In this document: piece after piece, positions 4,060 to 61,271 of the stretch
Layout of the letters: every line of letters begins with the position of its first letter
How positions within the stretch are numbered: the first letter of the stretch is position 1
Assembly (NCBI GenBank): GCA_002796125.1
Contig: PCWA01000015.1
Coordinates: 11,650-73,903, forward strand
Reading direction: 5' to 3'
Origin: Candidatus Ghiorseimicrobium undicola
GTDB lineage: Bacteria > Omnitrophota > Gorgyraeia > Ghiorseimicrobiales > Ghiorseimicrobiaceae
DNA length: 62,254 nucleotides
Notes under the pieces: model-generated
What the model saw: only the letters and a program-made list of their open reading frames with translations
Told to the model about the DNA's origin: nothing
The model's database searches: none
Made by a program: the position numbers and the translations under genes

Positions 4060-5337
4060 ATGAAAATTTTAGTTATTGGTTCAGGCGGCAGGGAGCATGC
4101 TATTGCCTGGAGGATATCAAAGAGTCCTAAAGTAAGAGGGATTTTTTGCGCTCCCGGTAATGCCGGGATATCAGAAATTGCCGAATGCGTGGATATAGCC
4201 GCGGATGACTTGCAGGCCTTGGTTAAATTCGCAAAAGATAACTCTATTGATTTAACGGTTGTGGGGCCTGAAACAGCATTATGCCGCGGCATTGTTGATT
4301 TGTTTGAAAGTCAAAACTTAAAAATTTTCGGGCCGGGCAAATCAGCCGCACGGCTTGAAGGAAGCAAGCTTTTTGCAAAAGAGGCGATGGAGAGGTTCTC
4401 AATACCCACGGCCAAATACCGGGTATTTACGGATGCGCAATATCAAGACGCCTTAAACTATATTTCAGGTATAAAAAAGTATCCGATAGTCATTAAAGCC
4501 GATGGGTTGGCTGCCGGCAAAGGCGTAATTATCGCCAAAAGCAAAAATGAAGCAGAGGCGGCGGTAAAAGATATCTTGGTTGATAAGGTATTTGCCTCAA
4601 GCGGAGAGAAAATAATAATAGAGGAATGCTTAGAAGGCGAGGAAGCTTCAATACTTGCTGTTTGTGACGGAGAAAATTTTTTGTTACTGCCGCATTCTCA
4701 AGATCATAAAAGAGCCTTTGATAATGACCAAGGGCCCAATACAGGAGGCATGGGCGCTTATTCGCCGGCCCCGGTTGTAAAAGATGATATTTTAAATAAG
4801 ATAAATAAAGCGATAATTAAACCTTTGTTGGACGGCCTTAAAAGCGAAGGCAATATATACCGCGGTATTCTTTATGCCGGCCTGATGATAACTAAAGAAG
4901 GGCCTAAGGTGCTGGAATTTAATGTGCGTTTTGGCGATCCGGAGACACAGGCAATCCTTCCCAGAATAAAAACAGACTTGATAGATGTGATGTTTGCTTC
5001 AATAGAAGGCAGGCTTAGGGAGGTAAAACTGGAAATCGATTCGCGTTTTTGCGTCAATGTAGTGCTGGCTTCCGGCGGATACCCGGGCAATTATGAAAAG
5101 GGTAAAGAGATATTTGGTTTAGATGAAGCAGTAAAGATGCCGGATGTGATAGTATTTCATGCCGCCACCAGCAAAGAAAACGGCAAAATTGTAACTAACG
5201 GCGGAAGGGTGCTGGGAGTGACGGGATTAGGCAACACCATAAAAGAGGCAATTGCTAAGACCTATCAGGCAGTTGATAAGATTAACTTTGAAGGCATGCA
5301 TTATCGTAAGGATATCGGCAGAAAAGCCGTAAATTAA
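4060..5337 (+). CDS. purD: Phosphoribosylamine-glycine ligase
   Basis: GSGGREHA, KADGLAAGKGV, QDHKR, GPNTGGMG, EFNVRFGDPE. Confidence 0.97.
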   Translation: MKILVIGSGGREHAIAWRISKSPKVRGIFCAPGNAGISEIAECVDIAADDLQALVKFAKDNSIDLTVVGPETALCRGIVDLFESQNLKIFGPGKSAARLEGSKLFAKEAMERFSIPTAKYRVFTDAQYQDALNYISGIKKYPIVIKADGLAAGKGVIIAKSKNEAEAAVKDILVDKVFASSGEKIIIEECLEGEEASILAVCDGENFLLLPHSQDHKRAFDNDQGPNTGGMGAYSPAPVVKDDILNKINKAIIKPLLDGLKSEGNIYRGILYAGLMITKEGPKVLEFNVRFGDPETQAILPRIKTDLIDVMFASIEGRLREVKLEIDSRFCVNVVLASGGYPGNYEKGKEIFGLDEAVKMPDVIVFHAATSKENGKIVTNGGRVLGVTGLGNTIKEAIAKTYQAVDKINFEGMHYRKDIGRKAVN

Positions 5338-25765: not shown

Positions 25766-25794
25766 TTTACAAAGCATAATCTTGACTGTATAAT
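25766..25794 (+). promoter_or_regulatory. Putative sigma70 promoter of hisG
   Basis: TTTACA-17-TATAAT. Confidence 0.55.
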
Positions 25795-25825: not shown

Positions 25826-25937
25826 CTCCGCTGCATAAACATTGAAAAATTATCGTAGAGAATTTTTCAATATTCCGCGGAGTTAATTCGCCCATACAAC
25901 TTACGTTCGCTTCGTTCCGTAAGTTGTGGGCCCATTA
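25826..25937 (+). repeat. Mosaic hairpin element: degenerate type-2 module plus type-1 module
   Basis: ttgaaaaatt-atcgtagag-aatttttcaa hairpin, then taattcgcccatacaacttacg...cgtaagttgtgggcccatta; same modules as at 34629 and 51148. Confidence 0.85.
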
Positions 25938-25939
25938 AA

Positions 25940-26815
25940 ATGAATAAGCTTAAATTAGGTATTCCAAAAGGAAGTCTTCAGGCGGCGACTATTGCCATGC
26001 TAAAAAAGGCTGGTTTTGAAATTAAAATCAGCGAGCGTTCATATTCTCCTTCTATAGATGATAGCGAGATAGAGCCTTTCTTAATCAGGGCCCAGGAGAT
26101 TTCCCGCTATGTAGAAAATGGAGTTTTGGATTGCGGCATTACAGGCAATGACTGGATATTGGAGAATAAATCAAAAATTTTGCGCGTCGCCGACCTAGCT
26201 TATGCTAAGCAAACGGTTAGTCCTGTAAGATGGGTTTTGGCTGTTCCCGAAGAATCCCGGATAAAAAATGCAAAAAGCCTCTCCGGCAAAAGTATAGCTA
26301 CTGAATTAGTAGGCGTAACCAAACAATATTTAAAAAAACACAAGATTAATGCTAGAGTTGAATTTAGCTGGGGCGCTACTGAGGTAAAAGTCAAGGCGGG
26401 ATTGGTTGATGCCATAGTTGAGCTTACAGAGACCGGTTCGTCATTGCGGGCTAATAATCTGCGCATAGTCGATACAGTATGTTTTTCTACCACACAGTTT
26501 ATTGCCAATAAATCTTCTCATAAAGACAGCTGGAAAAAAACGAAAATAGACCAGATCCGCCTGCTTTTATCCGGCGCTATAGGCGCTGAAGGTAAAGTTG
26601 GCCTTAAGATGAATGTGGCAAAAAATAATGTAAGGCGGATAATCTCTTTATTGCCGGCGCTTAAAAATCCTACAGTCTCTTCGCTAAGCAGAGGTGACTG
26701 GTATGCGATAGAAACAGTGGTTGAAGAAAAGATTGTAAGGTCTTTGATTCCAAGGTTAACTAATGCCGGGGCAAAGGGCATTATTGAATATCCGCTGAAT
26801 AAAGTAATATCTTAA
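25940..26815 (+). CDS. hisG: ATP phosphoribosyltransferase (long form)
   Basis: [34 protein letters not shown]-terminal regulatory domain. Confidence 0.96.
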
Positions 26816-33911: not shown

Positions 33912-34631
33912 ATGGAAGAAATTATTCTTATGGTGGGTAAAAGAACTGAAATCGGCACTAAAGAAGCAAATCAGCTTAGGAAATCAGGATTTATCCCCGG
34001 AGTAGTTTACGGGGAGGCAAAATCAGAAGCAATAAAGATTTCCAGGTCTATATTGCTTAAATTCTTGCATGAACATAAAGGTGAAAACTTGATAATAAAT
34101 TTAAAAATTGATGAGGGGGATGCCAAGAAAGCAAAAAGCAGTACGGTGATGATTAAAGAAATACAGCTTGACCCGGTCAGCGATGAAATAATACACATCG
34201 ATTTTAATAGGATATCCATGACTAAAGCCATAACGGTTAAGGTTCCTGTTGAAGCCAAGGGCGAATCTATAGGCGTAAAAGCTGATGGCGGAGCGCTGGA
34301 ACATATTTTATGGGAACTTGAAATAGAATGCTTACCTAAAGATATACCTAATTCTATAACTATAGATGTAAGCCAGCTAAAGATCGGCGATGCAATACAC
34401 ATAAAGGATATCAAATTTCCTGAAGGCCTTAAAGTTAAGCATGAGCTAAACGCTATTGTTTTATCTATTGCTCCTCCTGCGAGAGAAGAGGTTCCCGCCG
34501 CCGGGGCAGAGGTACTTGCCGGAGAAGGCGAGGCTGAGCCGGAAGTAATTAAAGAGAAAAAGAAAGAGGAGGCGGCTAAAGAGCCTAAGGAAGCGGTAAA
34601 GGAACCTAAAGAAACAAAGGAAAGCAAATAA
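33912..34631 (+). CDS. rplY: 50S ribosomal protein bL25 (CTC long form)
   Basis: IPGVVYG, QLDPV, HIDF, GGALEH, CLPKDIP, acidic tail. Confidence 0.95.
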   Translation: MEEIILMVGKRTEIGTKEANQLRKSGFIPGVVYGEAKSEAIKISRSILLKFLHEHKGENLIINLKIDEGDAKKAKSSTVMIKEIQLDPVSDEIIHIDFNRISMTKAITVKVPVEAKGESIGVKADGGALEHILWELEIECLPKDIPNSITIDVSQLKIGDAIHIKDIKFPEGLKVKHELNAIVLSIAPPAREEVPAAGAEVLAGEGEAEPEVIKEKKKEEAAKEPKEAVKEPKETKESK

Positions 34632-34873
34632 TTCGCACTTATCCGCCTACGGCGGATGTGCTTATTTCCCGATGGCTAAACACTGCGTAGATTTCTTACG
34701 AAATCTACTTGTAGCCATCGGAATAATTCGCGCCTATCCGCCTACGACGGATGCGCTCATTTCCCTCGCCTATACGCTTGTAAATTTCTGGTGAAATTTA
34801 CTGCCCAGGCTTCGGGATTAATTCGGCCATACAACTTACGTCGGCTTCGCCTCCGTAAGTTGTGGCCTCATTA
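34629..34873 (+). repeat. Mosaic array of alternating hairpin modules (1-2-1-2-1)
   Basis: Type 1 at 34629-34666, 34724-34761, 34819-34873; type 2 at 34667-34723, 34762-34817. Confidence 0.9.
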
Positions 34874-44023: not shown

Positions 44024-44191
44024 ATTAAGCCGCGGCTTAAAAAGTAAAATACCAATAAAGCATTTATTTAAAATCGCCCTTGATATGGTAAACCCGGCGT
44101 TCTTATGGACGCGGGGATGAGTGTCAAGGGCGTAGCTCAAACAGTAACTTATGGAAAAGCGCGCATGTCATAAGTTGCAGTTTTGTTGATT

Positions 44192-45059: not shown

Positions 45060-45878
45060 ATGGAAAAAAACACATTCAAAAAAATTGGCCTTATAGCCGG
45101 TTCCGGCCGCTTCCCTTTATTGTTTTCGCAAGAGGCGAAAAAAAACGGCGTAAGTGTCGTGGCTATAGCGGTAAAAGGCGATACCTGTAATAAGCTCAAT
45201 CGCTGCGTTGATAAAATTATCTGGCTTAAAATTTCTGAATTCAAGAGAATATTCGATATTTTTAAAAGCGAAAATATAGATAAGGCGGCCATGGCAGGTC
45301 AAATTAGCCCGAGGCGCCTTTTTGACAAAAGGAATAATTTTGGCCCGGAATTAAAAAAGTTACTAGAACGTATTAGGGATAAAAAAGCTGATACTATTTT
45401 TTCCGCTGTTGCCGAAGAATTGAATAGCCATGGCATAGAGGTAATAAGTTCGCTTCTTTTTCTTTCAGAATATATACCGCAAAAGTCAGTATTGACAAAG
45501 CGTAAGCCTGTCGATTCACAGTGGCAGGACATATATTTCGGGCTGGATATTGCTAAAAAAATAGCGGGTTTGGATATAGGCCAGACGGTTGTTGTTAAGC
45601 AGAAAGCGGTTCTTGCTGTTGAAGCGCTGGAGGGGACGGATGTAACTATAGCCAGAGGGGGCTTGATTGGGCGCGGCAATTCCACTGTTATTAAAGTGAG
45701 CAAGCCGAATCAGGATATGCGTTTTGATGTTCCCGTTGTGGGCCTTAAGACTATGCGTAGGCTATCGGCTTCAGGGATAAATTGCCTGGCGCTCGAAGCA
45801 GGCAGAACCATTATTTTGGATAAAAAGGAAGTAATAAGTTTTGCCGACAAAAAAGGTATTATAATTGCCGCTGTATAA
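45060..45878 (+). CDS. lpxI: UDP-2,3-diacylglucosamine hydrolase LpxI
   Basis: GLIAGSGRFP, DIGQTVVV, EALEGTD, QDMRFDVPVVG. Start at ATG 45060. Confidence 0.93.
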   Translation: MEKNTFKKIGLIAGSGRFPLLFSQEAKKNGVSVVAIAVKGDTCNKLNRCVDKIIWLKISEFKRIFDIFKSENIDKAAMAGQISPRRLFDKRNNFGPELKKLLERIRDKKADTIFSAVAEELNSHGIEVISSLLFLSEYIPQKSVLTKRKPVDSQWQDIYFGLDIAKKIAGLDIGQTVVVKQKAVLAVEALEGTDVTIARGGLIGRGNSTVIKVSKPNQDMRFDVPVVGLKTMRRLSASGINCLALEAGRTIILDKKEVISFADKKGIIIAAV

Positions 45879-45911
45879 TTCGCCCATATCTCGCCGCAGG
45901 CGGATGGATCC
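45876..45911 (+). repeat. Solitary type-1 hairpin module beginning in the lpxI stop codon
   Basis: taattcgcccatatctcgccgcaggcggatggatcc; closely similar to the reverse complement of 51475-51513. Confidence 0.8.
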
Positions 45912-45925
45912 AGTAATTTAAAAAC

Positions 45926-48960: not shown

Positions 48961-50052
48961 TTAGGAAAGCCTGCGCACGGCAAATAGGCTTGCCGAAATG
49001 AATACTCCGTGGCTTAAGACAGCGGATATAATGGGCGGGATGAGTCCGGTTTTCCCAAAGGCAATACTTGTTTGGTTGAAGACATAGTATATAAAACTTA
49101 TTCCTATGCAGACGCCCAGGGATGCTATGGCTTGGCCTCTTTTTCTTGAGCCGAGGGCGAAAGGTATTCCCACCAGGATTATTATAAAACTTGTAAACGG
49201 ATAGCTGTAGCGGTTGTAGAGGTCTACTTTAAGGTTTCTGATTACGGCGACTGCCCCGCTTTTTGAAAGCCTGTTTACATAATCTTTTAGCTGTGCTATA
49301 TTCATGAACGCTGTCTGTTGCTGCTGGCGCAGAAAATCGGCCGGCCGGTCATCAAGCCGCATGAATTTATTCTCGAAATAAAACGGCTCGCCGATTAACT
49401 GGCCGTCTTGATTAAAATAGGAAATGACGCATTTGCGGAACAGCCAGCTATCTTTCCTGAAATAAGCATATCTTGCCACTGTTTTAGAAACGACATTTTG
49501 ATTTTTGTCGTGTTCGAGCATCGTTACATTTTCCATCATTTGTTTTTTCGGGTAATATATATCTATAACAAAATGGCGGTTATTTTGCCCGTATATCGCG
49601 AGATTATACATTTTACTGGGCTGGCCGTTATTATTCTTTTCAAATATCTCATTTTTCATCCGGTAACTAATCTGTTGCGCTTTTGGCAGGAAGCGCTCAT
49701 TTACCATAAAAATAAGTATACTGATTATAAATCCGAATATAAGGACGGGCTGCGATATCCGCCAGATGCTTAGGCCGCTTGCGCGCATGGCGATGATTTC
49801 GTTATTCTTGGATAATGTCCCTATAGAATAGAGAAGGCTCAGCAGGCAGGCCATTGGAGAGACCTGGATGTATATAAGCGGTATAAATGAGAGGTAATAG
49901 TTTATTAATAAGGATAACGCTACCTGATCTTTTAAAATATCATCTAAATGGGAAAATAAATCTACGATTATATATAAAAACAGAAATACAAGTATGCAAC
50001 ATATATAGGCTGAAACCATGGATTTAGTTAAGTATCTGTCTAAAATGCGCAT
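48961..50052 (-). CDS. lptG: LPS export ABC transporter permease LptG
   Basis: MRILDRYL start (moved from 50106), NNEIIAMRASG, 6-TM layout with periplasmic domain. Confidence 0.88.
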   Translation of the reverse strand: MRILDRYLTKSMVSAYICCILVFLFLYIIVDLFSHLDDILKDQVALSLLINYYLSFIPLIYIQVSPMACLLSLLYSIGTLSKNNEIIAMRASGLSIWRISQPVLIFGFIISILIFMVNERFLPKAQQISYRMKNEIFEKNNNGQPSKMYNLAIYGQNNRHFVIDIYYPKKQMMENVTMLEHDKNQNVVSKTVARYAYFRKDSWLFRKCVISYFNQDGQLIGEPFYFENKFMRLDDRPADFLRQQQQTAFMNIAQLKDYVNRLSKSGAVAVIRNLKVDLYNRYSYPFTSFIIILVGIPFALGSRKRGQAIASLGVCIGISFIYYVFNQTSIAFGKTGLIPPIISAVLSHGVFISASLFAVRRLS

Positions 50053-51146
50053 ACAAGCATAGTAAGGATTGTGCCTAGCAGGCCGAATATGATATTTGGT
50101 ATCCACATGGCAAGTTCCGGCATGGGGTATCCATGCAGGCCAAGGTATTTCGCCAGGGCGCCTGCCCCCAGGATTAATAGGTAGTATATTCCAAAAATAA
50201 CAAAACCCAAGCCTAAATTTACGGATTTTAACCTTTGCTTGGCAATCATGCTTAAAGGACAGCCGATTAAAGCCAGGATCAGGCAGGCGAACGCGAGCGA
50301 GATCTTTGTTTGTATTTCTATGGAAAGCGGGCTATAGTCCATATCTGATTTAGCAAGGCGCCTGATTTCCTCATTAAGTTCTTTAAGTGTCATGTCTTTT
50401 GGTTTTTTAACCGTTTTACCATTGGTGGGTTTTGCGACATTTAAGTTTATAAAGTATGTTTTGAAGTTCAATTTATAAAACATATTAGGATCATTCGGGT
50501 TGGGTTCGTCGCTGGAACCGTCGATAAGCTTTAATTTGATTATTCCCTGTTCCGGCAAAGATATAAATTCCCCTTTTTTGGCAATAATTGTGCGCGCGGG
50601 CTTGCCGGGCCCTTGAGGTTCGTATATGCGTATATTTTCCAATTTATTGCCTTCGATTTTGTAAATAAACAATATATATTTTTGGAATGAATCAATAAAT
50701 GTCCCCGCCTCAAGCGTAGCCGTAGGGTTTTTGAAGCCTATATCAAGCATGGCCCTTCGCTTTTCAAAATTTGCTTTAGGCATAATAGTCGTGTTGAATA
50801 TTACCATAAAAAGGCTGAACATCAGCCCGAGGGTTATTACCGGCATGACGATATGCATAAGATTTATCCCCGCCGCTTTTATCGCCGTTATCTCGTTATC
50901 AGATGAAATTCTACCCATAGACCAGAGAACGCTTGTAAATATAGCCAAGGGGAGTATGAAGCTTAAGGGGTAGAATAAGGAGTAGAAAAACAGTTTACCT
51001 ACCGAGAAGACTTCAACGCCTTTATTTATTATCAGCGCCGTGTATTGAGTCAGGAAGACCAGAGAAAAAATAAACAACAAGACCGCAAGAGATAATATAA
51101 AAGGAGTTATAAATTCTTTTAATACATATTTACGCAGTATTTTCAT
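50040..51146 (-). CDS. lptF: LPS export ABC transporter permease LptF
   Basis: MKILRKY, DNEITAIKAAG; first of the paired permeases. Confidence 0.88.
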   Translation of the reverse strand: MKILRKYVLKEFITPFILSLAVLLFIFSLVFLTQYTALIINKGVEVFSVGKLFFYSLFYPLSFILPLAIFTSVLWSMGRISSDNEITAIKAAGINLMHIVMPVITLGLMFSLFMVIFNTTIMPKANFEKRRAMLDIGFKNPTATLEAGTFIDSFQKYILFIYKIEGNKLENIRIYEPQGPGKPARTIIAKKGEFISLPEQGIIKLKLIDGSSDEPNPNDPNMFYKLNFKTYFINLNVAKPTNGKTVKKPKDMTLKELNEEIRRLAKSDMDYSPLSIEIQTKISLAFACLILALIGCPLSMIAKQRLKSVNLGLGFVIFGIYYLLILGAGALAKYLGLHGYPMPELAMWIPNIIFGLLGTILTMLVCAF

Positions 51147-51147
51147 T

Positions 51148-51513
51148 TAATGAGGCCATAACTTATGGAGGCGGAGCCGGCATAAGTTATTTGGCCGAAT
51201 TATCCCGAAGCCTATCAGGGTAAAATTCGAAGAAATTTACCCTGATGTTTAGGCGAGGGATGCCGCTATCATCTAATGAGCGCATAACTTACGGAGTTCG
51301 AAGAACGACGTAAGTTATTTGCGCGAATTAATCTCCTCGCTTAAGCAAGGGGTAAATTCTCGAAGAGAATTTACCCCTTAAGCTTCGGAGTAGGTTAGAA
51401 CTTATTAAGCTTGAACCTACCCGCAGCCTATCGGGTAAATGTCGTAGAGATTTACCCGATGTTTAGGCAAGGGAAGGAGCGCATCCGCCTTGCGGCGAGA
51501 TAAGTGCGAATTA
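51148..51513 (-). repeat. Largest mosaic hairpin array: three type-1 and three type-2 modules with short spacers
   Basis: Type 1 at 51148-51202, 51274-51330, 51475-51513; type 2 at 51203-51260, 51332-51390 (inverted), 51420-51474. Confidence 0.9.
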
Positions 51514-52215
51514 ACTCGCAAACGTCAATACCGAAACATTTTTTGCCCCGGCTTCTTTTAATATTCTCGATGCTTCAGAGCATGTTGCCCCGGTAGTTAA
51601 TACATCGTCTATCAAAAGTATATTTTTACCGGTTATTTCTTTTTTGTTTTTAATTTCAAATACGCCGTTCATATTAAGAAATCGTTCTTGAAAACCAAGT
51701 TTTGTTTGTGTGTTTCTGTTGCATATTTTTATTAAATTATTACTGCTGAGAGGGATGTTAAAGGCTCCTGATATATTTTCAGCTATAAGTTCGGCTTGGT
51801 TAAATTCTCTTTCTCTCAACTTCGCAGGATGCAAGGGTATGGCTGCCATCATATTAAAGTTTTGTACCGGTATGCGGAAAATATTTATAAAATTGTGCAT
51901 TATGCGCGATATCGTGTATATTAGTTTCATTTTACGACGGTATTTAAATAAGTGTATAATCTCTGCGGCTTTGCCGCGGTAACAGCATGGGCTAAAGGCC
52001 CGTTGGAAGTGAAGCGTGTATTTTTGGCAATGGCCGCAGCGGGCTCTTTGTAAATGCCTGCCGCAACGTTTACAGAAAGGCGGAACATTTCTTTCTATGG
52101 CGTTAAAACATGAATGACAAATGATACCCTTTTTTTCTATCAATTGATTTTTGCATATGGGGCATAGCGCAGGATAGATAATATTGATAAAATTTTTCAG
52201 AACAGCCGCTGGCAT
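51511..52215 (-). CDS. comF: ComF family phosphoribosyltransferase-like competence protein
   Basis: CPIC/CHSC/CKRC Zn ribbon, REFNQAE, LIDDVLTTGAT. Confidence 0.92.
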   Translation of the reverse strand: MPAAVLKNFINIIYPALCPICKNQLIEKKGIICHSCFNAIERNVPPFCKRCGRHLQRARCGHCQKYTLHFQRAFSPCCYRGKAAEIIHLFKYRRKMKLIYTISRIMHNFINIFRIPVQNFNMMAAIPLHPAKLREREFNQAELIAENISGAFNIPLSSNNLIKICNRNTQTKLGFQERFLNMNGVFEIKNKKEITGKNILLIDDVLTTGATCSEASRILKEAGAKNVSVLTFAS

Positions 52216-52223
52216 AATGCTTT

Positions 52224-52252
52224 ATATTACAATATGGGCATGGCTTTGTCAA
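52224..52252 (-). promoter_or_regulatory. Putative sigma70 promoter of comF-lptFG
   Basis: TTGACA-17-TAATAT on the minus strand. Confidence 0.55.
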
Positions 52253-58280: not shown

Positions 58281-61271
58281 ATGCCTGAGAATTGGCAGGG
58301 AAAATTGGAAAAAATAGATAATTACCGCTGGCGCCTGCCGAAAACATATAAACCGGGCATGCGCGTTGAGGGAATTGTTTATAGCGATGAAAAATTATTA
58401 AAAGATATTTTTCATGATAAGGCATTGGAGCAGGTGGCTAATGTCGCCTTTTTGCCTGGTATTGTAAACGCCTCTTTAGCCATGCCGGATATTCACTGGG
58501 GATACGGTTTCCCTATCGGGGGCGTGGCGGCAACGGATATAGGCGCAGGCGGTGTGGTATCTCCCGGAGGTGTTGGTTTTGATATAAATTGCCTTACCGG
58601 GGAATCAAAAATATTGACCGATAAGGGATTTACGGTAAAGATTAAGGATTTAGAGGCTGATTGGAAGAAGACTAAATTGATAACAATGAACTTTTCAAAA
58701 AAGATTAAGGAAGAAACGGATTTATTTAGATTTATTAAAGTCAGGCCTAAAGAGAAAATTTTGCAAATAACTACTTTCGGAGGCCAGAAAATAAAGGCAA
58801 CGCGAGACCATCCGTTTTGGACCGAAGATGGGATGGTTGCTCTCAAGCGTCTTAAGCAGGGGGACAAGGTCGCGGTTTATCCGTTTGCCGGCGTTGATTT
58901 TGAGAACCCGAGCGACGAGGTTATTATTGACGAAAAAGACGTTTTAAATTTATTGTCGCGCCTGAAGAAAGATTTAGGCGGCAATGCTAAAGCACAGATT
59001 ATCAATCAGTTAAAGAAAAGAGGTTTACTGCCTTTACGATATAATTCTAGCGCGTTGCCTTACTTGATTAAGGTAGCCGGTTACTCTATTGGCGACGGCA
59101 ACGTGCATTTTGTAAAGCTTAGAGGCAAAGGGATAAGCTGGTTTTGGGGAAAGTCTGATGATTTAGAATTAATCAGAAGAGATATAGAAAAAATAGGTTT
59201 TAAGTGTTCTAAGATTTATAGCCGTCAGAGGAAGCACAAGATACAAACGTGGTATGATTTGGTTGAATTTGAGAATCTTGAAAATTCCTGTAAAGTATGC
59301 TCAAGTGCTTTTGCGATAATGCTTGTTTTGCTGGGAGTTCCATTTGGTAATAAAACAGATACGCCGTATTTAATGCCAAAGTGGCTTTTTAGGGCGCCGC
59401 TTTGGCAAAAAAGATTGTTCTTAGCCGCTTATTTTGGAGCGGAGATGAGCGCGCCAAAATCTTTCTTGGAACATGGATATAACCTTTATTGTCCGGTTGT
59501 TTCGATGAATAAACGGGAGTCGTTGGTTGATAATGGAGTTGCGTTTTTGGAAGGGGTATCCAAGCTTTTGTCTGAGTTTGGAATCTCTGCGTTGAAAATA
59601 AGCCGCAATGCTGAATACATATCAAAGAAAGGAACCTTGCATTACCGCCTAAGGTTGATTTTATCTAATAAATCTGAAGACTTGATAAATTTATATAGTA
59701 GGGTAGGATTTGAGTATAACCGGCAAAGGTCTTTTTTGGCTAATACCACGGTACAATTTTTGCGGCATAAAGATGAAATTTTGCGTACGCGTCAAGAAGC
59801 CGAATCAAGCGCTATTGGGCTGCATGCACAGGGTTATAGCGCAGAAAAAATTTATAAAATGTTGGGGTCTAAATTTGTGAATATGAGATTTATTGAAAGG
59901 TCTGTTTATGGAGAGAGAAAGACTGATCCCCGGATTAGTTCCGCCGCTTTAAACTTCGCCGATTTCATTGATGAACATACACAAGGTCTCGGCTATTCCG
60001 GGATGATTTGGGATAAAATAGTTTCTATTGCAGAGTCACCATTTGAAGAATATGTATATGATTTTACTGTTAATCATCAAGACCATAATTTTATTGCTAA
60101 TAATTTCGTGGTTTCAAACTGCGGCGTCAGGCTGTTAAAAACAAACTTGCAATATAATGATGTTAAAGATAAAATCAAGGATTTGACTTGCGTCTTATTT
60201 TCAAACGTGCCCAGCGGGGTCGGCTCAAAGGGCGACATAAGAGTATCGGTTAAGGAGGAGAGAGAAATCCTGCTCAAAGGCGCAGGGTGGGCAGTGGCGA
60301 AAGGCTACGGCATAAAAGAGGATTTAGAATGTACCGAGGAATCCGGCGCGCTTTCCGGCGCGGACCCGGAAGCGGTTTCCGAGCGGGCCTATGAGCGGGG
60401 CAAGGCGCAGTCAGGCACGCTTGGCTCGGGTAATCATTTTCTGGAAATACAAGTGGTTGATCAGCTTTATGACCGCCAGCTCTCAGATGCCTTTGGGCTT
60501 GATTTAGGGCAGGTAATGGTGATGATACATTCCGGCTCGCGAGGCTTTGGCTATCAGATCTGCGATGATTATGCCAGAAGCATGGTGCGCTGCCTGCAGA
60601 ATTACAATATTAATGTGCCGGATAGGCAGCTTGCCTGCGCCCCTGTTAATTCTCCGGAAGCCAAAGCGTATTTAGGGGCAATGAGATGCGCGGCAAATTA
60701 TGCTTGGGCGAACAGGCAGTGCCTGATGCATCTTGCGCGCAGGTGTTTTGAAAAATTTTTTAATGCTTCATGGCAGGGGTTGGGAATGCATCTTATTTAT
60801 GATGTTGCCCATAATATCGCGAAAATAGAAAAATATAATATTGACGGCGAGGAAAAACTATTGTGCGTGCACCGTAAAGGCGCCACTCGGGCATTTGGCC
60901 CCGGAAACCCGGCCTTGCCTCCGAAGTATAAAAATACAGGCCAGCCGGTGATTATCCCCGGCGACATGGGAAGGAATTCTTATCTTTTGGTAGGGACAAA
61001 AAAAGCCGAAGAGGAAACTTTTGGCTCTACCTGCCATGGAGCAGGGCGCCTTAAATCGCGCACAGCGGCAACGCGCTCCGTAAATTTTAGCGCGTTAATG
61101 AAACAATTGGAAGCAAAAGGAATTACGGTGATGGCTTCGGGACGCGGCACGATAGTTGAAGAAGCACCTGAGGCCTATAAGGATGTAAATGAGGTCGTGG
61201 ATGTTGTGCATAGTGCCGGCATATCCAAGCGGGTAGCACGCATGCGTCCCTTAGGCGTAATCAAAGGGTAG
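58281..61271 (+). CDS. rtcB: RNA-splicing ligase RtcB containing an intein
   Basis: MPDIHWGYGFPIGG, VGFDIN|C, GTLGSGNHFLE, HSGSRG, AHN, HRKGAT, STCHGAGR, EEAPEAYK. Confidence 0.97.
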   Translation: MPENWQGKLEKIDNYRWRLPKTYKPGMRVEGIVYSDEKLLKDIFHDKALEQVANVAFLPGIVNASLAMPDIHWGYGFPIGGVAATDIGAGGVVSPGGVGFDINCLTGESKILTDKGFTVKIKDLEADWKKTKLITMNFSKKIKEETDLFRFIKVRPKEKILQITTFGGQKIKATRDHPFWTEDGMVALKRLKQGDKVAVYPFAGVDFENPSDEVIIDEKDVLNLLSRLKKDLGGNAKAQIINQLKKRGLLPLRYNSSALPYLIKVAGYSIGDGNVHFVKLRGKGISWFWGKSDDLELIRRDIEKIGFKCSKIYSRQRKHKIQTWYDLVEFENLENSCKVCSSAFAIMLVLLGVPFGNKTDTPYLMPKWLFRAPLWQKRLFLAAYFGAEMSAPKSFLEHGYNLYCPVVSMNKRESLVDNGVAFLEGVSKLLSEFGISALKISRNAEYISKKGTLHYRLRLILSNKSEDLINLYSRVGFEYNRQRSFLANTTVQFLRHKDEILRTRQEAESSAIGLHAQGYSAEKIYKMLGSKFVNMRFIERSVYGERKTDPRISSAALNFADFIDEHTQGLGYSGMIWDKIVSIAESPFEEYVYDFTVNHQDHNFIANNFVVSNCGVRLLKTNLQYNDVKDKIKDLTCVLFSNVPSGVGSKGDIRVSVKEEREILLKGAGWAVAKGYGIKEDLECTEESGALSGADPEAVSERAYERGKAQSGTLGSGNHFLEIQVVDQLYDRQLSDAFGLDLGQVMVMIHSGSRGFGYQICDDYARSMVRCLQNYNINVPDRQLACAPVNSPEAKAYLGAMRCAANYAWANRQCLMHLARRCFEKFFNASWQGLGMHLIYDVAHNIAKIEKYNIDGEEKLLCVHRKGATRAFGPGNPALPPKYKNTGQPVIIPGDMGRNSYLLVGTKKAEEETFGSTCHGAGRLKSRTAATRSVNFSALMKQLEAKGITVMASGRGTIVEEAPEAYKDVNEVVDVVHSAGISKRVARMRPLGVIKG
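58590..60119 (+). mobile_element. Intein (510 aa, residues 104-613) with LAGLIDADG homing endonuclease
   Basis: Block A CLTGES, block B ATRDHPF, VAGYSIGDG and FLAAYFGAE, block F/G VYDFTV..HNFIANNFVVSN, +1 Cys; removing it leaves a 486-aa RtcB. Confidence 0.95.

Follow-up and report, generated by a model that had tools for sequence, protein, structure and literature searches.

A hairpin array between comF and lptF as a likely member of a modular repeat family in Omnitrophota

In a 62,254-nt stretch of DNA from Candidatus Ghiorseimicrobium undicola, hereafter the window, the 366-bp gap between a comF-like gene and the lipopolysaccharide (LPS) export gene lptF (51148-51513, with the sense on the minus strand) was found to be a chain of seven hairpins, most of them belonging to two unit types that we call A and B. 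We consider it likely that this array is a local cluster of a new, widespread and modular hairpin-repeat family in Omnitrophota, similar to MITEs (miniature transposable elements with inverted repeats), repetitive extragenic palindromes (REPs) and BOX elements. This phylum is uncultured and made of ultra-small bacteria, many of them probably host-dependent, that are known almost only from metagenome bins. The units recur at other junctions of the window and in many other genomes of the phylum, and their pairing is kept while their sequence varies.

The comF-lptF array and its kin in the window

In sense order, the comF-lptF array (array 1) reads A, B, a 29-nt mini hairpin, an inverted B, A, 13 nt, B and A (Table 1), and a single adenine then separates it from the lptF ATG. 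An initial annotation of this DNA had recognised a hairpin array at these positions with the order 1-2-spacer-2(inverted)-1-spacer-2-1, and this matches A3-B3-hairpin-B2(inverted)-A2-linker-B1-A1. The six modules it counted are real, but the number of hairpins is seven, as its 29-nt spacer, reported to be closed by a short stem, indeed folds too. Likewise, the perfect inner stem it gave as 13 bp is present in B2 and is actually 15 bp long (AAGGGGTAAATTCTC/GAGAATTTACCCCTT). The core of the mini hairpin (AAGCTTA/TAAGTT) is similar to that of A, and the A covariance model gave no match to it; it may be a collapsed A-like unit. Six of the seven hairpins of the array are co-oriented.

The A unit is a hairpin of about 55 nt with conserved sequence, or of about 40 nt in its short form, and the B unit is a hairpin of 54-58 nt whose frame is conserved and whose inner stem varies. 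The long A reads in full TAATTCG-SSC-AWAYAACTTAYG-loop-CRTAAGTTRTG-SSC-TCATTAA. As had been proposed, the modules of array 1 have diverged with their pairing kept: A1 and A2 are 79% identical, B1 and B3 83%, and B1 and the reverse complement of B2 68%. Because the copies have diverged, Tandem Repeats Finder (TRF) detected no tandem repeat in the array. No open reading frame (ORF) longer than 34 aa was found within it. Rfam covariance models at gathering score matched only tRNAs in the whole window, and at E <= 10 the best hit on the array (E 0.03) came from chance miRNA models far under their gathering scores.

The whole array folds at -163 kcal/mol on the minus strand and -172 kcal/mol on the plus strand, with z-scores of -12 and -13, and these values were matched by 0 of 100 shuffles. 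For single modules, z lay between -3.4 and -6.7, the short A3 (z -1.55) being the exception. When 68 long A copies with 18 pairs were aligned, 99.3% of the cells were paired, and the four variable pairs all covaried without exception (97 double changes); in slid controls, the paired fraction fell to 24-40%. The B unit showed compensatory changes in 13 of its 15 consensus pairs across about 25 genomes. G-U pairs were near zero in the aligned A copies (2 of 1224 cells), and the mispairs of 147 A copies, decayed ones included, comprised 17 G-U versus 12 A-C, with no strand asymmetry. This scarcity and symmetry indicate a Watson-Crick constraint on both strands, which would fit DNA hairpins or palindromes, or arm-to-arm template-switch copying, better than selection on one RNA strand.

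Further copies in the window were located by a minimum free energy scan and module searches, the B sequence pattern alone matching B1 and B3 only. In total, the 62 kb carry 15 modules and two decayed ones at five intergenic sites, all between genes, those at the four further sites in the sense of the flanking genes. The idea in the initial annotation of a single hotspot was thus not upheld, as a second array of five modules, all of them co-oriented (array 2), and three smaller sites lie in the same window, and the family is found in at least 53 other species genomes. The long A copies of the window (two in array 1 and one each in array 2 and at hisG) score 71-75 bits to the A covariance model, and the short A3 has its kin in the short A copies at 34629, 34724 and 45876. 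An A that directly follows a gene supplies the stop codon of that gene with its TAA (comF, L25 and lpxI), and where a long A is terminal, it ends CTCATTA(A/T), 0-2 nt ahead of the next ATG (lptF, pth and hisG). Array 2 starts on the L25 stop and ends 1 nt short of the pth ATG (34875), the hisG ATG at 25940 comes directly after its B-A pair, and the short A at 45876 begins on the lpxI stop, 9 nt ahead of the radical-SAM ATG. The lpxC-lpxA junction, which holds the decayed pair, is only 9 nt long in the relative L175.

Table 1. Array units, related modules and neighbouring features in the window
Feature	Position	Strand	Remarks
A3	51474-51513	minus	short A, TAATTCGCAC...GCGCTCCTT; first 3 nt are the comF TAA stop codon
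B3	51420-51473	minus	type-I B hairpin; -22.7 kcal/mol, z -4.9
29-nt mini hairpin	51391-51419	minus	"spacer" of the initial annotation; stem TAGGTT/AACCTA, z -3.35
B2	51333-51390	plus	type-I B, inverted relative to B1 and B3; 15-bp perfect inner stem; -31.3 kcal/mol, z -6.7
AT dinucleotide	51331-51332		between B2 and A2
A2	51274-51330	minus	long A; covariance model R1 70.9 bits, E 3.5e-18; z -6.5
Linker	51261-51273	minus	13 nt, unique; sense-strand sequence GATGATAGCGGCA
B1	51203-51260	minus	type-I B hairpin; z -5.7
A1	51148-51202	minus	long A; R1 71.2 bits, E 2.7e-18; z -5.6; 3' end CTCATTA
Array 2 (A-B-A-B-A)	34629-34873	plus	between the L25 gene and pth
Array 2, short A	34629-34667	plus	
Array 2, B	34668-34723	plus	
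Array 2, short A	34724-34762	plus	
Array 2, B	34763-34818	plus	
Array 2, long A	34819-34873	plus	
hisG site	25826-25937	plus	B 25826-25883 and long A 25884-25937 (75.4 bits)
Single short A	45876-45916	plus	between lpxI and a radical-SAM gene; weak, 12.4 bits
Decayed pair	44071-44189	plus	degenerate B-like and decayed A-like hairpin (A copy at 44133, about 16 bits), between lpxC/fabZ and lpxA
comF-like gene	51511-52215	minus	double zinc ribbon and phosphoribosyltransferase; upstream of array 1
lptF	50040-51146	minus	LptF/LptG permease; downstream of array 1
lptG	48961-50106	minus	next after lptF
Promoter match	52224-52252	minus	sigma-70-like TTGACA-17-TAATAT, upstream of comF
Promoter-like site	25766-25794		TTTACA-17-TATAAT, upstream of the hisG B-A pair

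Distribution, gene context and variation of the family

The 5' half of the long A, a 22-nt pattern (TAATTCGSSCAWAYAACTTAYG), was searched for in 596 Gb of sequence, where by our calculation about two chance matches are expected. More than 113 stretches matched it. For the 80 matching loci listed, the source assemblies number at least 53, nearly all of which bear the label Omnitrophota; a long A is present in the complete genome of Ca. Velamenicoccus archaeovorus, and viral contigs gave zero matches. With the A model, 250 matches were found in 711 kb of pattern-positive loci. A stable hairpin ended no more than 3 nt upstream of A in 95 of 119 copies, and 26 of these 95 hairpins scored at least 20 against the consensus of the B type of the window (type I). 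By its flanking proteins, the window belongs to Candidatus Omnitrophota. The best LptF in a set of species-representative genomes is only 56% identical to that of the window, and between genomes whose LptF proteins share about 53% identity the 56-nt A consensus has hardly changed. When the array itself was compared by blastn-short with 48 lptF loci of relatives, only chance 12-16-mers were obtained. No mention of such repeats was found in the incomplete part of the Omnitrophota genome literature that was searched, broad genome surveys included, and the A/B family is apparently undescribed.

Other genomes also contain an inverted A-like unit, A', in which the central C:G pair is swapped to G:C. 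It starts with TAAGTGAGGAC on the upstream stop codon, and it is part of three-hairpin A'-B-A composites (L104, 6548-6725 and 7630-7804; L086, L085, L150, L131, L087 and L163) that start directly on that codon, as TAA GTGAGGAC... The inverted ends of the composite (RTGAGSNCATAASTTAYG) match at 14 of 18 positions in a count by eye, and TAA stands on both sides. A conserved small ORF beginning at the GAGGA and ATG inside A', which resemble a ribosome-binding site (RBS) and a start codon, was considered and rejected, as the reading frame is not maintained (6 codons in L087 and more in other genomes).

The gene context was analysed for 90 long A copies ending in the terminal form. A sense gene starts 0-18 nt downstream in 62 of them, and by our reading seven more precede short genes. 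Two spacing classes were observed, one of 0-5 nt without a Shine-Dalgarno (SD) motif and one of 9-18 nt in which many but not all copies have an AGGAGG-type SD; an SD-like motif is present in 26 of the 62 sense copies. For half of the sense copies, an SD-less ATG follows after 0-5 nt, and the genes concerned include the essential lptF, dnaB and accA. In nine antisense copies, the antisense gene ends at or near the A 3' end, and six of these genes use the TTA of TCATTAA in their stop codon. An antisense A also stands in the ribBA leader of four genomes (L152, about 4190-4250; L104, about 5284-5336; L151; L094), right after a GC hairpin with a T-run, and is a conserved exception to the sense rule; the hairpin and T-run look terminator-like and are possibly a riboswitch expression platform. 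The 67 downstream proteins matched 474 NCBIfam families, each of the 25 most-shared families having no more than two members, and no common function or regulon was found among them. No tie of the array to LPS export was found, as genes of all kinds lie downstream of such elements.

With regard to transcription, the scan found no promoter- or terminator-like site inside array 1. The promoter match upstream of comF would read through the array, which we infer is co-transcribed with comF and lptFG, and the hisG B-A pair is predicted to lie in a 5' untranslated region (UTR). A sigma-70 promoter inside A, with TAAGTT as the -10 element, was rejected because a -35 partner is lacking and the scan gave no hit there. 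In its tail (GCUCAUUAA), A is similar to the Nus-factor boxA; this segment is partly base-paired, and the likeness was set aside.

Orthologous junctions were then compared. In 17 more distant relatives, the comF-lptF gap measures 5-10 nt. Among genomes with 70-75% LptF identity, comF and lptF overlap (ATGA) in L171 and L172, the spacer is 13 nt in L170, and one unrelated small hairpin is found in L169 and L174, while L087, with 53% LptF identity, has an A'-B-A composite there. The N-terminus of LptF (MKILRKY) is kept in relatives. This comparison supports the view that the array was added in this lineage to a junction that normally has 0-13 nt, and that the junction of L087 was filled independently with a different module set. 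For each of the junctions ribBA-ribH, nusB-PHP, accD-accA, rplI-dnaB and lpxC-lpxA, some genomes have the empty state and others a filled one, often with different content. An empty site has one TAA (L144, GAT TAA ATG), and the filled site of L086 reads GAT TAA[GTGAGG...CTCAT]TAA AT ATG. TAA flanks the arrays and most A units. Inside array 1, TAA is found at the borders comF/A3, B2/A2, B1/A1 and A1/lptF, TAG at B3/hairpin and A2/linker, and TAC at hairpin/B2; the A3/B3 and linker/B1 borders have no such trinucleotide.

The array also varies between strains, as the initial annotation had suggested checking. The independent contig L049 from the European Nucleotide Archive carries it with 100% identity. 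L176, a Joint Genome Institute contig retrieved by a match to the first 31 nt of lptF, has flanks 99.5% and 98.8% identical to the window and only three units at the junction, namely A3, a hybrid B and an A1 with one loop substitution at 51180. The first 16 nt of the hybrid are those of B3 and the rest are those of B1, and the allele is 213 bp shorter, the difference being bounded by the 11-nt repeat GCCTAAACATC. Judging from this boundary, the difference between seven and three hairpins is a B3 x B1 recombination. The array is therefore not the invariant match to a known non-coding RNA that had been named as a possible refutation: its length varies, and it has no Rfam match.

Origin of the arrays and competing explanations

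According to the mobile-repeat reading that we prefer, the units or composites would be MITE- or REP-like mobile DNA that inserts at TAA and duplicates 3 bp. In compact genomes, stop codons would be almost the only tolerated TAA sites and hence a safe landing, as an element that lands on a stop TAA would keep the upstream stop and leave the downstream RBS and ATG untouched. Such insertion in the stop codon would make the arrays abut both genes and let the two spacing classes arise passively. Each event would recreate TAA on both flanks, later insertions would hit the module borders, and the arrays would be self-seeding; unequal recombination between like modules would then trim or expand them, as in L176. 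Array 1 would be tolerated since the stop codon is kept, the start region is intact, there is no terminator, and the whole is fully structured and probably co-transcribed with comF and lptFG. The stop-codon TAA is apparently a safe harbour, the family sitting in essential operons without breaking them. Whether insertion takes place at TAA with a 3-bp duplication is, on the borders and the filled and empty sites, about evenly balanced. The stepwise accretion that had been proposed for the array finds support in the lineage-specific addition, the independent and different filling in L087 and the TAA-like trinucleotides at the borders, but the sole polymorphism seen is recombination between B units.

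Several observations weigh against mobility. Across about 0.8 Mb of loci, neither a transposase nor a RAYT-like gene was recurrent in the vicinity of copies, and the window shows no evident one either, so the inserting enzyme implied by the initial annotation was not found. When 1433 ORFs from 113 loci were clustered all against all, no mobile-element protein was recurrent, those of the top recurrent groups that could be identified by eye were housekeeping ones (UvrA-, FabF- and rib-operon-like), and no autonomous insertion sequence with matching ends was seen in the A-bearing loci examined. Single modules of the window have unlike ends (TTCG... and ...CTCAT) and no terminal inverted repeats, although each A is itself built as arm-loop-arm. 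Recombination, and not transposition, accounts for the only polymorphism observed, and the TAA duplication comes from a comparison of filled and empty sites in different species rather than from a clean pair within one species. The terminal A is oriented with the next gene in about 69 of the 90 copies versus 9 antisense; this sense bias of roughly 8:1, together with the single orientation shared by all eight A'-B-A composites examined, is neither predicted by a plain cut-and-paste MITE nor explained by our preferred reading. The same reading does not account for the conservation of the A consensus across deep divergence, which is stronger than usual for selfish repeats. Finally, the A model found no copy in 214 kb around lptF in 25 relatives, and the density of the family is very uneven.

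Some of these points would be accounted for if the hairpins were a domesticated intercistronic RNA element, retained by the host as processing or stability sites, as a Rho-proof spacer or as a platform for SD-independent initiation, an explanation that we regard as unlikely but worth stating. The sense bias and the 56-nt consensus speak for it, and so do the half of the sense copies that end 0-5 nt from an SD-less ATG, where initiation works right behind the hairpin, and the hisG B-A pair inside its predicted 5' UTR. The minus-strand island of comF, lptF and lptG (48961-52215) lies among window genes that are nearly all on the plus strand, with a positive GC skew throughout, and the same island orientation is suggested in L087; in these lagging-strand islands, the elements follow the genes and not the surrounding strand bias, which slightly favours a transcription-linked cause. 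GC skew was also tried as a means of telling replication from transcription and was uninformative, since it tracks gene orientation in 8-kb loci. On the other hand, orthologous junctions are erratic (empty, filled or differently filled), a strain has three rather than seven hairpins, decayed copies are present, and the downstream genes have no common function. The near absence of G-U pairs without strand asymmetry argues against selection on one RNA strand, and the spacing classes of 0-5 and 9-18 nt are expected passively from insertion at the stop TAA.

An equally doubtful proposal is that A and B form a phylum-wide, host-retained cassette of operon punctuation, which would bring its own 5' stop codon, an SD-independent landing for the 3' start and Rho-proof hairpins, with a conserved Omnitrophota factor recognising the A stem, either to process RNA or to insert DNA in a strand-specific way. 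Should this be the case, the arrays would set the relative expression of cistrons, and the module numbers of strains would be expression variants.

The array could also be a cis-regulatory leader specific to lptFG, such as an attenuator, a thermosensor, or a leader that binds a protein or small RNA. The array immediately precedes lptF, shares its transcript orientation and is highly structured, and the 5' arm of B2 (51372-51386) is perfectly complementary over 15 nt to lptF codons 59-63 (50958-50972), which encode the conserved FYPLSF motif; this length was reached by 1 of 300 array shuffles against 4 kb of flanks. However, pth and hisG are preceded by the same modules, which are also present at two further junctions of the window and ahead of unrelated genes in at least 53 other genomes, whereas the closest relatives have no such leader. 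The three-hairpin allele lacks B2, so any pairing between B2 and lptF is dispensable, and no terminator-like site is present. A specific lptFG leader is very improbable and largely refuted by the available data.

Just as improbable is an assembly artefact, that is, a chimeric or mis-joined repeat region, which the initial annotation had named as a refutation. Six of the nine contigs found for the locus (L050-L055) do stop inside the array, with end points in the A1 loop (51170 and 51179) and in B3 (51442-51461). Nevertheless, L049 spans the whole array independently and with full identity, and L176 spans the shorter allele with only 11 identical bases at its junction, too few for a collapse at k >= 21, indicating that an assembler did not collapse the repeat. 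The contig breaks adjoin the allele differences, and those samples thus probably contain the two alleles side by side. In addition, the length of array 2 is unchanged in four other assemblies.

Repeated units with two short unique stretches might suggest a CRISPR array or a small-RNA gene cluster of a known family, the least credible of the explanations, as the units are of two types, measure 39-59 nt, mostly adjoin one another and include an inverted one, and the copies are only 68-83% identical, with a negative TRF result, no Rfam match and no internal promoter-like site; the initial annotation had rightly set CRISPR aside.

Relation to known repeats and minor observations

Among known systems, the array works most like BOX of Streptococcus pneumoniae, and we place it in the class of small interspersed hairpin repeats, outside every named family. 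BOX elements (boxA-boxB(n)-boxC) are made of modular 40-60-nt units with predicted stem-loops, are intergenic and co-transcribed, vary in size among strains via internal gain or loss of modules, and cluster and insert into one another (PMC3049150). The Omnitrophota units are likewise modular hairpins, and their number is strain-variable here too, with seven in the window and L049 versus three in L176. Compared by architecture, however, A and B alternate and both array ends are A units, with no boxA and boxC ends around tandem boxB. Moreover, the family is not confined to one genus but occurs in many species of a phylum, starts on stop codons and shows a strong co-orientation with genes.

The REPs of enterobacteria are 20-40 nt long. 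REPs and bacterial interspersed mosaic elements (BIMEs) are described as high-copy extragenic palindromes, often inside operons, that form mosaic clusters of alternating motifs and affect mRNA attenuation and stability (PMC3049150; PMC3733652), and one end of the REP palindrome carries a conserved GTAG or CGTC tetranucleotide (PMC3733652). The Omnitrophota modules resemble them as short, imperfect intergenic palindromes in many copies with a DNA-level hairpin signature. In contrast, they have no GTAG or CGTC head, as A ends TAATTCG.../...CTCATTA(A) and B ends (T)CCC.../...GGGA(T). Neighbours in BIMEs alternate in orientation with fixed linker motifs, whereas nearly all hairpins in arrays 1 and 2 are co-oriented. 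REP doublet elements (REPINs) are mobilised by REP-associated tyrosine transposases (RAYTs), and no RAYT was found near the A and B copies in the loci covered above.

The MITEs Correia, ERIC and Chunjie are small non-coding hairpin elements with direct-repeat flanks that lie beside genes or between them; the RNAs of Correia and ERIC are cut by RNase III or RNase E, and ERIC is common to several bacterial families (PMC10969869). The A and B units are also small, non-coding and highly base-paired, and A'-B-A has imperfect inverted ends of about 18 nt with TAA flanks. They differ in being shorter and in combining freely into arrays, in that single units lack terminal inverted repeats, and in that the putative target is the TAA of a stop codon. 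From CRISPR they differ in having neither near-identical direct repeats nor unique spacers of similar length. With the A/B family, the few modular repeats listed for bacteria (BOX and BIME) would be joined by one that many species share. The invariant A hairpin and the gene-sense bias point to a trans-acting factor, a candidate for phylogenetic profiling.

The family has practical consequences, as it fragments short-read assemblies (six of nine contigs here and two at hisG) and creates length variants among strains, which matters for bin quality and typing. L181 and L183 end at the edge of the hisG B hairpin (25832), and several matches in public metagenome-assembled genomes sit at contig ends or beside runs of N (e.g., L095, L099, L101 and L141).

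Hairpins also nest in hairpins. In Ca. Velamenicoccus archaeovorus (L068, 6840-6973), a GC-rich perfect palindrome of about 67 nt lies inside the loop of a long A, and it is absent from the orthologous copy in L156 (7553-7620). In relatives (L171, L175, L134, L014 and L015), the tsaB-alr junction and its neighbours contain unrelated fillers, runs of 8-9-nt units (CCATTTAA, CCAATTAA and CCTTAATC) followed by their complements, and the comF-lptF junction of L006 (1330-1475) holds GATTACACAGATT repeats. Intergenic hairpin fillers thus seem to be a general habit of Omnitrophota. Elsewhere in the window, the gene for the RtcB RNA ligase (996 aa, about 58281-61271), which is preceded by an archease gene, carries an intein, as read from the Pfam matches of contig L049, 99.95% identical to that part of the window.

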